Source: a virus
Taxonomy: Duplodnaviria; Heunggongvirae; Uroviricota; Caudoviricetes
Strand: one strand, 5' to 3'
DNA: 64,000 nucleotides
Virus record (IMG/VR): IMGVR_UViG_3300033463_000003
The position numbers and the translations under genes were made by a program. Below the pieces are notes generated by a model. That model was not told where the DNA came from and did no database searches. It worked only from the letters and a program-made list of their open reading frames with translations. Shown one piece after another: positions 3,662 to 59,953 of the stretch. Positions within the stretch are counted from its first letter, which is position 1. Each line of letters starts with the position of its first letter.

Positions 3662-3703
3662 ACTGCGTTTTTTATTGCTAAATTAAATAAGTAGGTGAAG
3701 TAA

Positions 3704-54338: not shown

Positions 54339-54734
54339 ATGAAAACTAAAATTAAAAGATATTGCGAATGATGTGGAAATGAAATTAAAGATCGACATGC
54401 TAAAAAATTTTGTTGTAGAGCCTGTTATCTTGAAGCACATAAATTAGAACACTATAAAAAATATTTAGAAGATAATTCTATTGCATGGGGCATTCAAAAC
54501 ATGCAGCGATATAAAAAATATTTTTTAGAAGAACAAAATCATAAGTGTGCTATTTGTGGCTGCGATGATACTTGACAAGGTAAACAACTAGTATTTATAT
54601 TAGATCATATTGATGGCAATGCCGATAATAATAACCGAGATAATTTAAGGCTAATTTGCCCAAATTGTGACTCGCAATTAGATACTTATAAATCAAAAAA
54701 TAAAAATTCAGCTAGAAAAAAATATCGTAAATAA
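54339..54734 (+). CDS. HNH endonuclease (code 4; TGA at 54369 and 54573), absent from ORF track
   Basis: CAICG...T[TGA]QGKQL...LDHIDG..NN...NLRL.CPNC.SQ..TY..KN; Trp is typical at this position in the family. Confidence 0.88.
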
Positions 54735-54748
54735 TGTATATTATATTT

Positions 54749-55031
54749 AGGAGAGTGGTGTAACGGTAGCACAGCGGTCTTCTGTTAATTGGAGCACTTA
54801 TTAAGGGATTAGTAAGTGAATGGTGTAAATTCAATGAACCCTGTAAAATGGTAACGTTGAGCGAAGCCTCGAAAGAGGAACGTGCAGAGACTATAATCAC
54901 CCATCTAGACCAGATGAAAGCATAGTCCAGACCACAAACTGTTAGGCAATGAAAATTGTAGTGGTAAGCAAAACCGTAAAGAGGAGCTTCCAAAACTCCG
55001 GGCGCGGGTTCGAATCCTGTCTCTCCTGCCA
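54749..55031 (+). tRNA. tRNA with anticodon UCA (UGA-decoding, Trp-type), split by a group I intron, with 26-nt extra arm
   Basis: Exons 54749-54781 + 54969-55031 rejoin to GCGGT-CT-TCA-AA-ACCGT; acceptor AGGAGAG/CTCTCCT, G73, CCA; A1-U72, G2-C71, G3-C70 as in bacterial tRNA-Trp. Confidence 0.85.
54782..54968 (+). mobile_element. Group I intron (187 nt, resembling the tRNA-Leu(UAA) IC3 type), no ORF
   Basis: P/Q/R/S-like elements AAATTCAATGAA, GTTGAGCGAAG, GTGCAGAGACTA, GCATAGTCC; P7 GACTA/TAGTC; U.G wobble at 5' splice site; terminal G. Confidence 0.88.
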
Positions 55032-55097
55032 TAAGTTTATATTAATTTAAAAAATATAAGCTAAATTAAATGAGTTTGAGTAAATCAAACTTACATA

Positions 55098-55166
55098 GTG
55101 AAAAGCACACCCGTAGAAATGCGGGGTCGCAAAACTATAGGGTCTTATTAAAGATAGCCAGTTGCC
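55098..55166 (+). promoter_or_regulatory. GEMM-I (c-di-GMP-I family) riboswitch aptamer, A20 variant
   Basis: G-CACAC-CCGTA-GAAA-TGCGG-GGTCGC-AAAACTATAGGGTCT...AGATAGCCAGTTGCC fits P2 (GAAA tetraloop), P3 and junction pattern. Confidence 0.85.
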
Positions 55167-55252
55167 TCAATCAAAGTATTTTGGTTGGGGCTTTATTTTT
55201 AATAAGATAGCCAGCTGCCTCAATCGTTCTATACGGTTGGGCATTTTATTTT
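55164..55252 (+). terminator. Two tandem intrinsic terminators, each preceded by a copy of the aptamer 3' end
   Basis: GCCTCAATC..GGTTGGGGC-TTTATTTTT, then GATAGCCAGCTGCCTCAATC..GGTTGGGC-ATTTTATTTT. Confidence 0.75.
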
Positions 55253-55273
55253 GTAGAAAAGGAGGCAAGGTTA

Positions 55274-55975
55274 TTGGATAGAGATATTGCATTAAAGTAT
55301 GTCAGACGAAAAAAACGCAATAAAAGAGTCGCAATAATTTCAGGCATTAGCACAATAATTCTTACAATATTCATAATTATTGCCTTCAGTCTGATTCATG
55401 TTGATAGATTTACTATCACAACAAGTGAAGAGCCTGAGCTGTGCTTAACACTTAATCAAAAAGAGTTTACAACTAAACTTACAGCTCCTCCACTTCTTAA
55501 AGCAACAGATACTCAATATACTTACGTAATTGAAAATCTGGATGAAACTGAAGGGAGTAAAAACACAGATTATTATTTCGCTTATTCCTTCTATTTAGGT
55601 GGCCAGGGTAAATCAGAGAGTATAAACTATAACTTAGCTTTATCGCTTGATAAATACTCAAATAACATTGAAGAAGCAATAAGAGTGATGATAATAAGGA
55701 ATGGTATAAAAGAAGTTTATGCTAAACCAGACCAAAATGGAGAAGCTAAACCAATCTATTACGGTGAAACACATGAAAGTGCACCAGAACAAATTGGAAT
55801 AACAACACCATTTAGATCAAATAAAAACATTATAGTTGAAGCGTACGAAATCAAACCTGGCGACTTTGATAAATACACAATTGTAATGTGGATCGACGGT
55901 TGGGAATCCGTCAACGAAATGAAGGGCGGGGTGTTCTCAGCCAATATAAAATTCTCAACTCATTCAATTAATTAA
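55274..55975 (+). CDS. Membrane-anchored extracellular protein
   Basis: Basic N-terminus plus one TM helix; TTG start with GGAGG RBS. Confidence 0.65.
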   Translation: MDRDIALKYVRRKKRNKRVAIISGISTIILTIFIIIAFSLIHVDRFTITTSEEPELCLTLNQKEFTTKLTAPPLLKATDTQYTYVIENLDETEGSKNTDYYFAYSFYLGGQGKSESINYNLALSLDKYSNNIEEAIRVMIIRNGIKEVYAKPDQNGEAKPIYYGETHESAPEQIGITTPFRSNKNIIVEAYEIKPGDFDKYTIVMWIDGWESVNEMKGGVFSANIKFSTHSIN

Positions 55976-55995: not shown

Positions 55996-56892
55996 ATGAA
56001 AAGAAAATCAAAAATCTTAGCAGCTGCTATTGGATTATTAGCATTTAGCACAGCTGCATCGATCACAGGCACAGTCGCTTGGTTCACAGCTAGTAATGTT
56101 GTTTCTGCCGAAGGTATTTATGTTATGGCAGAAAAAGAAGATGGTATTGTTATGGCTAATGAAGACTTTGATTCTTGGTCAACAGCTGTTCAAGCTTCAC
56201 ACGATGGCACAATTGGTAGTCCAGCGGCTCAAGCAGGATTTATTCCAACAAGTACAAAAGATGCTTCTACATGGGCACATGCTAGTGCAGTTCAAGCAGA
56301 CGATGAATTAGCTGTTGAATCTTCATATGCATTAGTTACACCAACATTAAATGGTTCCGATACTGGTATTTATAAAGCTTCTATTAACAATGTTGATAAG
56401 AATATTTATTTATTAAATACTTTCTATCTTAAATCAGCAAGCACAGACCCAATTTCTGGCAATTTATATTCTTATGTTAAAGCTGAAGTTGTTGGTACAA
56501 GCGTTAGTGTTGAATTAAATAAAGCTTTAAGAGTTTTAGTTAAATATGGCTCTGATGTTAATGTCTATGCTCCAATTAATGGTGCAACTACTTCTTACTC
56601 TGTTTGTACAGCTATTAACTCTGGTGATAATCCAGCAACCACAGATGTTACTGAAACAAGCTATCCAACAAAAGAATCTGTTTCAGCTCTTACTGGTGCC
56701 ACTACAAACTTATTAAAGAGTAATGTTACAATTCCAGCAAATAATCCAGATAGTGTAAATGTTAATACTTTCCCAGTAAACGTTTACTGCTACTTTGAAG
56801 GTGAAGATGCTGCTTGCTTCTCTAATAACATTAAAGCAACATTAGATCAACTTTCAATTACTGTTAAACTTGGAACTAGTTCAACTCTTTAG
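55996..56892 (+). CDS. Secreted fibre/pilin-like protein with SipW-cognate-type signal peptide
   Basis: Basic-hydrophobic leader ending GTVAWF; Thr/Ser/Asn-rich beta body. Confidence 0.6.
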   Translation: MKRKSKILAAAIGLLAFSTAASITGTVAWFTASNVVSAEGIYVMAEKEDGIVMANEDFDSWSTAVQASHDGTIGSPAAQAGFIPTSTKDASTWAHASAVQADDELAVESSYALVTPTLNGSDTGIYKASINNVDKNIYLLNTFYLKSASTDPISGNLYSYVKAEVVGTSVSVELNKALRVLVKYGSDVNVYAPINGATTSYSVCTAINSGDNPATTDVTETSYPTKESVSALTGATTNLLKSNVTIPANNPDSVNVNTFPVNVYCYFEGEDAACFSNNIKATLDQLSITVKLGTSSTL

Positions 56893-56967: not shown

Positions 56968-57642
56968 ATGTCTAAGAAAACAATTAAATTAATTGCAGCT
57001 ACTTCTATGGCTATCTTTAATTTACTTGCTTTATTTGCTGGTACTTTTGCCTGGTTTGTAAATACTAAAAAAATAGATGGTAATAATATAGCTGTGCAAA
57101 TGGAAGCACATGAATTAAATTTATCACATAGTATTTATAAATTTGATGATAATTTAAAATCTATAGTAGAAGTTAATACTTTAGATTTAAATCCATATGA
57201 TACTGTTATTACTGAAAGAAATGAAAATAATGCTATCATAATTAAAGCAACTTTGCAGAGTAATATGTTTAGTGACCAAGCTACAGCTGATGTAAATATT
57301 AAATTACACTGCTTAGAAGAATATGCCACTACAGATTATCTTTCAAATATTACACATTTTAAGTTTGCCCCACTTTCTATTACTTCTACCAACATTACAG
57401 ATATTTACAATCAAGCTGTAGCTGGTTTAGAAAATGAGACACCATTAAAATTTATTACAACAGTTAAATTAACTGAAATTGAAACAACTATTATAAATGC
57501 GCCAATTATTAATAATCAAGTAGTTATTTATGGCTTATTTAACTATGATGAACCATTAATTACTGCACGTGGAATTGACTTTGAAGAAGCACCAACATTT
57601 AGTAATGATATAGACTGGTTGAGGTTTGGAATACATGATTAA
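56968..57642 (+). CDS. Secreted protein with SipW-cognate-type signal peptide
   Basis: Leader ending GTFAWF. Confidence 0.6.
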   Translation: MSKKTIKLIAATSMAIFNLLALFAGTFAWFVNTKKIDGNNIAVQMEAHELNLSHSIYKFDDNLKSIVEVNTLDLNPYDTVITERNENNAIIIKATLQSNMFSDQATADVNIKLHCLEEYATTDYLSNITHFKFAPLSITSTNITDIYNQAVAGLENETPLKFITTVKLTEIETTIINAPIINNQVVIYGLFNYDEPLITARGIDFEEAPTFSNDIDWLRFGIHD

Positions 57643-59953
57643 AAAACGTTTTGCTTATATTTTAATCACTTTATTCTCTGGACTATTATTAGCATTGTCT
57701 GGAATTACTTTAGCTTGGTTTTTCAATACTACTGCAGATATTAATATTACTGCTGATGGTGAAATTTTTACAAATTATTTTCATTGCGGTAATGGTTCTG
57801 AGGATGAGCCATATGTAATTACTCGCCCAGTGCATTTATATAACTTAACAAAACTATATGAAGAACTTCCAGATTTTGCTTCTTCTAATCATCATTTTCA
57901 ACTTGGTTATGATTTAGAAAATAATGGTAATTTAGAATTCTATTCTTATAATGATGCCGGAGTTCAACAATCGGGATATTCTGATAGTTTAAACATGAAT
58001 TATTATGAAAACTTTGTTCCAATTGGCAGCGAAATAAAGCCATTTGGAGGCACTTTCGATGGTTCTAGCTTAACTATTAATAACTTAAATATTTCAGGCT
58101 CAGGAATTTCAGATATTGGTGTTTTTGGTTATGTTACTAAAGATGCTGAAATTAAGGATTTATATATTAATAACTTAGAAATTGATATTACAGATGCAGT
58201 TGATGATGAACATAATCATAGTAATGCTTATGTTGGTTATATTGCAGGCCATATTGATGATGCAACCTGTTTTACAAATACTTATGTAAATAACTGTGAA
58301 ATTACTGGTAATTCAGTATTAACCAAAAATGACTGGGGCTATTTCGGTTATTGTAAAAATGCTGCTTCTATTCAAGCTTTTATTGATAAAGCTAAAGAAG
58401 GTCAAGGTGAGGCCAGCACTTGGGGTGGCTCAATCGCTTTTGATGCTTTCAACCAAAGATTATATCATCACATAAGTTCAGCAAGCAATATTAGATTTAA
58501 AAACGGAAATTCTACATATACAAACGGTTTAATTAGAACTGAGTCCGATAGTGATAGTGCTATTACAGTTTATAGAGGCGGCAATGCTTCTACAGCAGCT
58601 ACTTATTTAAGTCAAGACCCAGCAAATAATTATGTTGTTTATAATATGATTGGTGCTGGAACTCACTCAATTAATAATAAGCAAAATAATTCTGGCACTA
58701 CTTATACTGCTACTTCTGCTGTTAATGGTACTTATGAGCCATTAATTATTGATAGTGATTATACTGTTGCTGATAGAAATACAGGTTATTTAACTAGCTC
58801 ACAATATACTCAAAATGGTTCAAGCCACTACTACAATGCCATTGATGGTACTGTTCGTTCAGCCTCTTATCCAAATGGTCAAATTGCAAACTCTTTAGAT
58901 GACAGTTATCATAATCAAAGCAGTCTATATAATGGTTCAACCGGTGGCCCAAAATTTACTTATGATGGTAGTAAGCTTGAAATCTTAACAAACAGCTCTG
59001 CTTCTTATGGTGCCAGTAATTATAGATTAATTAGCGATGATTATAATTCAGGCCACACTGTTTCTAATTCAGCTTTAACAGGTTATACAAAAACTAACTA
59101 TGACACATTAGGCTTAAAAAGATATAAGTCAGCTAGAGCTCATTTAGAACAAGTTTTATCCGGAAGTCAATATGTTCATGGTATTCACTTTATGGGTGAG
59201 GCTCCTGCTGCAAATAAAACAGTTAATGTCCCCCATGCAGTGATTAATGGTGAAGTGAACTCTAATTATCCAGTTTTATTAAGCACTGTTGACTTCGTAG
59301 TTCAAGAAGAAGGCTATATCACCTTATTTGCTGGCGCTTATTATCCAGCAACGCAAACTACTATTGCTGATAGTTTCTTTGATTTATATAAAGTAAATAG
59401 AAATGCTAACGGTGGTATTGCTTCTATTCAAAAAGTATATAAAATTTATAAAGATTCTAATAATAATTATACTTATACAAGTTCAGCTAATCAAACAGTA
59501 TCAGGTGCAACTTTAATGTTTGATATGAGCTATTTAACAAGTCAGCCACCAAAGAATAATGTTGCTTACTATTTTGAAATTCCAGTTGATGCTGGTGAAT
59601 TTGCTATTGGTGCTGTATCTGGAAAAACTGCTGGCGCTTATTTAATGTATCTTGACTTAGGAACAAATGGTGGTGAGGGCCAAGAAGAAACATTGGTTGA
59701 TGATTTTGGCTCAGTTGAATATAGAACAACGCCAGATACAGTAGAACATAATATAGTTTTAATTACTTATATTCAACAAGCGTCTCAAACAAACACATTA
59801 TCAGTTGTTTACATTGAAAGTGAAAAAAGATATAATATTTCATATTCTGGCACACTTACTCAAATTATAGTTACAGTTTTAAATACTGACTATTATGTCT
59901 ATTTTAATGGCACTCTATTGCTGCAGGAAATTCAATCAAATTACTTAAATTAA
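57635..59953 (+). CDS. Large adhesin-like secreted protein with SipW-type leader and GLUG-like segment
   Basis: Leader ending ITLAWF; G.G...PY.I, F.G.FDG...TI.NL.I, G.FGY pattern. Confidence 0.6.
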   Translation: MIKKRFAYILITLFSGLLLALSGITLAWFFNTTADINITADGEIFTNYFHCGNGSEDEPYVITRPVHLYNLTKLYEELPDFASSNHHFQLGYDLENNGNLEFYSYNDAGVQQSGYSDSLNMNYYENFVPIGSEIKPFGGTFDGSSLTINNLNISGSGISDIGVFGYVTKDAEIKDLYINNLEIDITDAVDDEHNHSNAYVGYIAGHIDDATCFTNTYVNNCEITGNSVLTKNDWGYFGYCKNAASIQAFIDKAKEGQGEASTWGGSIAFDAFNQRLYHHISSASNIRFKNGNSTYTNGLIRTESDSDSAITVYRGGNASTAATYLSQDPANNYVVYNMIGAGTHSINNKQNNSGTTYTATSAVNGTYEPLIIDSDYTVADRNTGYLTSSQYTQNGSSHYYNAIDGTVRSASYPNGQIANSLDDSYHNQSSLYNGSTGGPKFTYDGSKLEILTNSSASYGASNYRLISDDYNSGHTVSNSALTGYTKTNYDTLGLKRYKSARAHLEQVLSGSQYVHGIHFMGEAPAANKTVNVPHAVINGEVNSNYPVLLSTVDFVVQEEGYITLFAGAYYPATQTTIADSFFDLYKVNRNANGGIASIQKVYKIYKDSNNNYTYTSSANQTVSGATLMFDMSYLTSQPPKNNVAYYFEIPVDAGEFAIGAVSGKTAGAYLMYLDLGTNGGEGQEETLVDDFGSVEYRTTPDTVEHNIVLITYIQQASQTNTLSVVYIESEKRYNISYSGTLTQIIVTVLNTDYYVYFNGTLLLQEIQSNYLN

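Follow-up and report, generated by a model that had tools for sequence, protein, structure and literature searches.

A phage-borne GEMM-I riboswitch with a repeated half-aptamer and two terminators ahead of an operon of predicted exported proteins

What does a cyclic-dinucleotide riboswitch do on a phage genome: which second messenger does it read, and how could its leader turn that reading into a decision about the genes that follow? We address this for a riboswitch in a 64,000-nucleotide stretch of DNA from a tailed phage (Caudoviricetes; IMG/VR record IMGVR_UViG_3300033463_000003), hereafter the window. A first-pass annotation had described it as a GEMM-I variant that is selective for c-AMP-GMP because of an adenine at position 20 (A20), and that couples a surface-protein operon to host cyclic dinucleotides. 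Phage-borne GEMM-I riboswitches are already known, so the A20 base is by itself a modest finding. What is new here is a conserved repeat of half the aptamer, complementary to the aptamer's 5′ half and provided with a terminator of its own.

The aptamer is a real cyclic-dinucleotide riboswitch. It lies at 55094 to 55169 on the + strand and aligns to the full c-di-GMP-I model RF01051 (positions 1 to 87, + strand), scoring 59.0 bits against a gathering score of 35 bits (E = 5.5e-9 for the whole window). Together with covariation among relatives, this bears out the annotation's claim of a genuine GEMM-I riboswitch on phage DNA. P1 is formed by G14 (55098) and C93 (55166), P2 spans 55105 to 55130 with a GAAA loop, and P3 spans 55133 to 55163; A47 (55131) and C92 (55165) are canonical. 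Model position 11, which corresponds to Vc2 G20 and immediately precedes the first G-C pair of P2, is A55104 in the cmscan alignment. The adenine had thus been read correctly, and RF01051 itself tolerates A at this position. The possibility that position 20 was misaligned can be rejected, as both Rfam models agree and the six-base spacing from the P1 pair to G21 (55105) equals that of Vc2. The annotation had also proposed a comparison with Rfam models; RF01051 scores above its cut-off, and the GGC variant model RF03167 falls below its own (54.5 bits against 59). Membership of the GGC variant was rejected on this score and because position 47 is A, not G. Neither Rfam nor a model built on the relatives (R1) found a second complete aptamer in the window's leader. 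The leader is therefore not a complete tandem, or doublet: its second element is a 16-base 3′ half.

The riboswitch belongs to a large phage genome. Among the genes of the window are those for a DNA polymerase and a tRNA nucleotidyltransferase, along with over 20 tRNA genes, and nearly all long frames lie on one strand. The exact sequence of the first gene of the operon (ORF1) is also recorded on a contig of 225,736 bases, so that the window covers 64 kb of about 226 kb. In-frame TGA is absent from the four genes of the riboswitch operon, as it is from most genes in the window. We collected related loci from IMG/VR, JGI metagenomes, ENA assemblies and GTDB genomes. Homologues of ORF1 form 120 clusters, which come mainly from rumen or gut assemblies and lie on contigs as long as 227 kb; one related contig is in IMG/VR. 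The phage GenBank collection yielded no close relatives, only short matches upstream of the riboswitch at 54511 to 54928. Part of that region (54511 to 54718) has 74 to 78% identity to the crAss-like phages cr53_1 and cr116_1, in stretches that carry an HNH endonuclease annotation there. The stretch from 54440 to 55032 is non-coding, and its last part resembles the T arm and acceptor end of a tRNA (GGTTCGAATCC...GCCA). Three related contigs carry tmRNA genes (RF00023, 81 to 84 bits; L007:33-448, L009:1349-1729 and L010:1279-1659), which, with tRNA arrays, adjoin the riboswitch module on its upstream side; no tmRNA was called in the window.

The riboswitch and its operon travel together. In over 20 related phage contigs, this riboswitch stands ahead of the same operon of four genes. 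RF01051 was found by Rfam search directly upstream of an ORF1 homologue in 19 of 20 loci tested, and a covariance model built from the relatives places an aptamer upstream of the orthologous gene at 29 phage-type loci. In the alignment of the relatives' aptamers, 97.8% of cells are standard-paired and 10 of the 16 pairs have changed on both sides, values that none of 500 shuffles matched. The RF01051 match is not a chance hit.

Just upstream of the leader, at 55060 to 55071 on the + strand, is a conserved promoter-like motif, GCTAAATTAAAT. It is kept before the riboswitch in nearly all related contigs, including one that is GC-rich. On the + strand of the window it has four exact copies (the others are at 3677, 22377 and 31987), and 10 matches with at most one mismatch were observed where 3.0 are expected. 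Because it recurs on this strand and is conserved before the leaders, the motif is probably a phage promoter element; a sigma-70 consensus promoter was not found in the leader region. Between the motif and the aptamer, at 55075 to 55089 (+ strand), lies a small hairpin (UUUGA/UCAAA). By eye, hairpins of variable sequence occupy the same place in most A20 relatives. Hairpins at this place occur in L004 to L007, L011, L013, L015, L021 and L024; the G20 single-terminator leaders L001, L020 and L025 have none.

Downstream, a ribosome-binding site (AAAGGAGG) and the TTG start of ORF1 occupy 55258 to 55276 on the + strand, the start agreeing with those of homologues. All four genes are on this strand. 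ORF1 (55274 to 55975, 233 amino acids) has an N-terminal membrane helix followed by a predicted β-sandwich. ORF2 (55996 to 56892, 298 amino acids) is predicted to be an exported all-β protein. ORF3 (56968 to 57642) and ORF4 (57626 to 59953) encode 224 and 775 amino acids. ORF2 to ORF4 each start with a hydrophobic segment, which ends in GTVAWF, GTFAWF and ITLAWF, respectively. Searches of Pfam, PHROGs, NCBIfam and PDB sequences returned nothing significant for any of the four, and Foldseek found no significant match for ORF2 in the PDB. The SipW-cognate signal model TIGR04088 matches ORF2 weakly (E = 0.096; 12.9 bits against a cut-off of 19). Structural models give a weak resemblance to the TasA fibre 8aur_A for both ORF1 (AF2 pLDDT 81.6; Z = 6.7 across 121 aligned residues, level with the top matches) and ORF2 (AF2 pLDDT 71; Z = 5.4, rank 2), at Z values that are below the level excluding a merely common β-sandwich and too low to prove kinship with TasA.

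Bacterial operons homologous to that of the phage encode a SipW signal peptidase in two cases (L097 and L120; NF046067, 1e-19; TIGR02228, 55 bits). A sipW gene is not among the four genes of the phage operon, which would thus depend on the host's enzyme. The operon products are predicted to be exported proteins with SipW-type signal peptides and a weak likeness to TasA fibres, and the annotation's surface-protein operon is upheld in this form. One of the bacterial loci, in Mycoplasmatota bacterium zrk7 (CP076021.1; L120:5546-5753), has two complete G20 GEMM-I riboswitches in tandem before its SipW-containing operon, and this genome reads TGA as sense in the genes of the homologous operon.

How might the aptamer act on these genes? 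A first terminator, T1, spans 55164 to 55201 on the + strand, with a 12-pair stem at 55164 to 55191 and a U tract at 55192 to 55201 (−15.0 kcal/mol). Its 5′ arm starts at G91 (55164) and takes up G91, C92 and C93 of the aptamer, so the annotation was right that a terminator arm overlaps the aptamer's 3′ end. RNAalifold recovers 11 pairs of T1 in 13 relatives, several of them changed on both sides. As T1 covers C92 and the C93 of P1, terminator formation and ligand binding are mutually exclusive. From this we infer, as did the annotation, that the riboswitch is likely a transcriptional ON switch.

A second terminator follows. T2 spans 55217 to 55252 (+ strand; −11.9 kcal/mol), with its stem-loop at 55217 to 55242 and its U tract at 55243 to 55252, so that both terminators stand between the aptamer and the start codon. 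Hairpins of differing sequence, each with a U tract, occupy the position of T2 in 13 of 13 dual-terminator relatives. Immediately before T2, at 55204 to 55219 (+ strand), lies the repeated 3′ half of the aptamer, AAGATAGCCAGCTGCC, comprising the 3′ strand of P3, the AG bulge, C92′ and C93′. This copy 2 matches 15 of the 16 bases of copy 1 (55151 to 55166), and the 5′ arm of T2 begins at its C92′/C93′.

The one-and-a-half-aptamer layout is kept in 13 A20 leaders, whose ORF1 proteins are 45 to 85% identical to that of the window. Across these 13 leaders, mean column identity is 0.85 for copy 2 (11 invariant columns) and 0.90 for copy 1, compared with 0.54 for the rest of T2 and 0.66 for the spacer. 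Within each genome, the arms of T1 and T2 have fully diverged from each other; the repeat is thus old, and recent gene conversion is unlikely. A search of 401 Bacillota genomes for the half-aptamer repeat pattern gave two chance-like matches, against seven for a reversed-pattern control. The repeated half-aptamer is likewise not described in a review of tandem architectures (PMC9481103) or in the report on the dual-terminator riboswitch Bc1 (PMC11218506).

Copy 2 can pair with the aptamer's 5′ half. When the two are joined, 93.5% of cells pair, compared with at most 52% for a slid partner, although any cause of conservation would give high pairing here, since copy 2 repeats a strand that pairs with the 5′ half. 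Only 2 of 500 shuffles attained the covariation score of copy 2. Substitutions in copy 2 preserve pairing (G-U to G-C and U-A to U-G). At P1′, A-U gives way to C-G in L013 and U-G in L026, where copy 1 has a mismatch, and in L013 a C55-G60′ pair forms where copy 1 would give C-A. Covariation specific to copy 2 comes from two or three such events. A43 and position 80′ are unpaired in 10 of the 13 leaders (alternative P3). When the aptamer is enforced in folding, 11 of 13 leaders favour T1 together with an aptamer that copy 2 completes over the copy-1 aptamer together with T2, the margin being 1.2 to 14.5 kcal/mol; the copy-2-completed aptamer removes the GCC base of T2.

The reading we lean towards is that of a c-di-GMP-type ON switch, captured with a host-type operon, in which one 5′ half gates two terminators in turn. 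A rumen jumbo-phage family would have acquired a GEMM-I ON riboswitch along with the host-type operon under its control. Without ligand, T1 would form and withdraw G91, C92 and C93 from the binding pocket. With ligand, the pocket would keep these bases, T1 would be blocked and the polymerase would continue. Once it is past T1, the stable T1 hairpin could extract copy 1 from the aptamer, and copy 2 could then complete the aptamer using the same 5′ half. Ligand bound to this second form would withhold the GCC base of T2 and so block T2 as well. When ligand is absent, both terminators would form, keeping leakage low. GEMM-I ligands dissociate slowly, which makes a swap of copies during transcription kinetically uncertain. 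Two full riboswitches stand in tandem before this operon in L018, L023 and L120, which suggests that a double check is recurrent, or favoured, there.

Copy 2 might instead have no sensing role. T2 would then be a ligand-blind fail-safe, and the conserved AGATAGCCAG upstream of it would be kept as a pause site for a protein or RNA polymerase, by conversion with copy 1, or as an extended base of T1. Such an arrangement has a precedent, as dual terminators are documented for c-di-GMP-I riboswitches and T2 of Bc1 is insensitive to ligand and masks the effect of the first terminator (PMC11218506). The free variation of position 80′, which is mostly unpaired, and the contribution of the copy 2 region to an extended T1 in the unconstrained fold fit this explanation too. 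However, an unregulated T2 would leave a useless switch, yet the aptamer is strongly selected. Furthermore, the pairing kept at 71′ and 72′, the pairing restored at 76′ and 60′ where copy 1 is mismatched, and the full divergence of the T1 and T2 arms, which makes recent conversion improbable, all count against this explanation. We consider a fail-safe T2 rather unlikely.

A relay between the terminators is a further alternative: an aptamer locked on copy 1 by ligand would free the 3′ arm of T1, which would pair with the emerging 5′ arm of T2 and act as an antiterminator. The helix between these arms reaches −13.6 to −16.7 kcal/mol in the window, L003, L007 and L011, equal to T2 itself, but only −6.9 to −8.5 kcal/mol in L005, L006, L008, L009, L024 and L026, where it roughly matches T2 in the best case (L006) and is far weaker in most. 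The relay would also leave the conservation of AGATAGCCAG unexplained. We regard it as improbable, and it lacks support as a general mechanism, the helix being weak in about half of the leaders.

Which ligand would the sequential switch described above respond to? That A20 marks a c-AMP-GMP-selective variant, as first proposed, is not supported. Vc2 carrying G20A is bispecific, binding c-di-GMP at 53 nM and 3′,3′-cGAMP at 120 nM, and under the conditions used for that RNA even Gs1761 prefers cGAMP only about threefold (PMC6140456). Cbe 1-2, a natural A20 aptamer from Clostridium beijerinckii, favours c-di-GMP 15-fold (30 nM compared with 463 nM for cGAMP), with recognition through a protonated adenine (PMC6140456). 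Position 20 has been described as a selectivity factor and not a hard filter (PMC9262584). For sensing cGAMP, A20 is necessary, not sufficient.

Comparison among relatives also bears on the ligand. A20 is present in the window and in L003 to L013, L016, L019, L021, L024, L026 and L027, and G20 stands ahead of the same operon in the related phage contigs L001/L017, L015, L018, L020, L022 and L025. On a tree of ORF1 that is poorly resolved, the two types interleave; its well-supported branches require no fewer than three changes to account for the G20 single-terminator group. Among bacterial homologous operons, G20 is found in L097, tandem G20 in L120 and A20 in L085, a Clostridia MAG whose sole GEMM-I is the A20 riboswitch before the homologous operon. 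All 13 dual-terminator leaders are A20, and every G20 leader has either one terminator or two complete riboswitches; this association may be due to shared ancestry.

More widely, 7 of the 43 GEMM-I aptamers that we sampled (about 16%) have A20, sometimes in tandem with G20; the sample is Firmicute-type and comprises three genomes derived from our loci and a set of Clostridia-class genomes. Two Clostridia-class contigs illustrate such arrangements: a triple tandem in the order A20, G20, G20 (L183:1498-1958) and a doublet of G20 then A20 in a single leader (L191:1348-1586). Mixed A/G tandems thus occur in Firmicute-type genomes.

The alternative for the ligand is that the A20 aptamer is a GEMM-Ib sensor selective for 3′,3′-cGAMP, made by a Hypr GGDEF enzyme or a CBASS CD-NTase of the host, which would switch the operon on. 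In Geobacter riboswitches A20 pairs with the adenine of cGAMP, and the A20G change flips Gm0970 to c-di-GMP (PMC6456294). A20 is also invariant across 16 diverged phage leaders (13 of 13 dual-terminator and three single-terminator). The base is thus selected for and might point to another ligand, which counts against c-di-GMP. Furthermore, of the three bacterial carriers of the homologous operon, two (G001 and G003) have a SMODS/CD-NTase gene, which leaves room for a CBASS-type nucleotide.

Against this stand the bispecific or c-di-GMP-preferring behaviour of RNAs in which A20 acts alone (Vc2 G20A and Cbe 1-2) and the fact that sister phages and bacterial homologues place G20 ahead of this operon. 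The synthases in the carrier genomes point the same way. Hypr GGDEF enzymes have Ser at the position of PleD D344; among readable residues, no Ser- or Asn-type GGDEF was seen in G001 to G003, and in the L085 genome the base-reading position is Asp wherever the residue can be read. On the contig that holds L085 (C38 of G001; also L147 and L158), two genes with GGDEF domains lie 2 to 4 kb from the A20 riboswitch operon. One is canonical, with Asp at the base-reading site, and lies 4 kb from the riboswitch; the other is degenerate. A secreted, SipW-dependent fibre operon would also seem an odd output for an abortive-infection alarm.

A cGAMP-selective sensor is, on this balance, quite unlikely. 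The physiological signal is fairly likely to be c-di-GMP, with A20 probably relaxing specificity or lowering affinity, and 3′,3′-cGAMP may bind too. That the phage riboswitch senses a CBASS immune signal is possible, but none of the present results favours it. Very unlikely, in our view, is the fuller version in which A20 makes a phage-borne 3′,3′-cGAMP sensor of a CBASS alarm or Hypr-GGDEF signal and the half-aptamer duplication provides two successive readings. Of the claim that the phage couples a surface operon to host cyclic dinucleotides, what is borne out is that a real GEMM-I heads an operon of exported proteins; its cGAMP selectivity lacks support.

If one 5′ half does serve two 3′ halves, the leader would be a compact two-checkpoint switch, and the hand-over between half-aptamers would extend the list of known tandem riboswitch architectures. 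The locus also suggests that, in a jumbo-phage family, an acquired operon for exported, TasA-like proteins has remained under a second-messenger input from the host. The module thus bears on how phage accessory genes are tied to the sessile or motile state of the host.

Compared with Vc2 and other members of RF01051, the phage RNA has the same fold, GNRA loop on P2, A47 and C92, as well as a terminator platform and control of surface or matrix genes. It differs in having A20 rather than G, a P1 of only one or two pairs, a phage genome as its carrier, and a duplicated 3′ half and terminator. With the Geobacter GEMM-Ib riboswitches (Gs1761/pgcA, Gm0970 and pilM) it shares A20 and the combination of ON switching with terminators; unlike them, it has sister orthologues that use G20 before the same operon, and Hypr GGDEF proteins were not seen in the bacterial carriers. 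For how the phage RNA is likely to behave, the best functional guide is Cbe 1-2, likewise an A20 aptamer of a Firmicute setting, whose affinities are measured values (PMC6140456).

The TasA/SipW operons of Bacillus and Clostridium share with the phage operon an AWF-type signal motif, SipW in the bacterial homologue operons and a weak fold likeness to ORF1 and ORF2. In contrast to them, the phage operon lacks sipW and has no sequence family match, and its products are candidate fibre proteins. Bc1 of Bacillus thuringiensis likewise places two intrinsic terminators after one aptamer in a single leader (PMC11218506). A 3′-half repeat is not described for Bc1, which we compared by its published description, and its T2 is reported to be ligand-insensitive (PMC11218506), whereas T2 of the phage would be gated by copy 2. 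Finally, tandem c-di-GMP-I riboswitches, of which 347 doublets and 12 triplets have been catalogued (PMC9481103; for example, Bc3-5), place two ligand-dependent checkpoints in series, and the relatives L018, L023 and L120 use such full tandems before the same operon. The phage leader repeats only the 3′ half, and its single 5′ half would serve both checkpoints.
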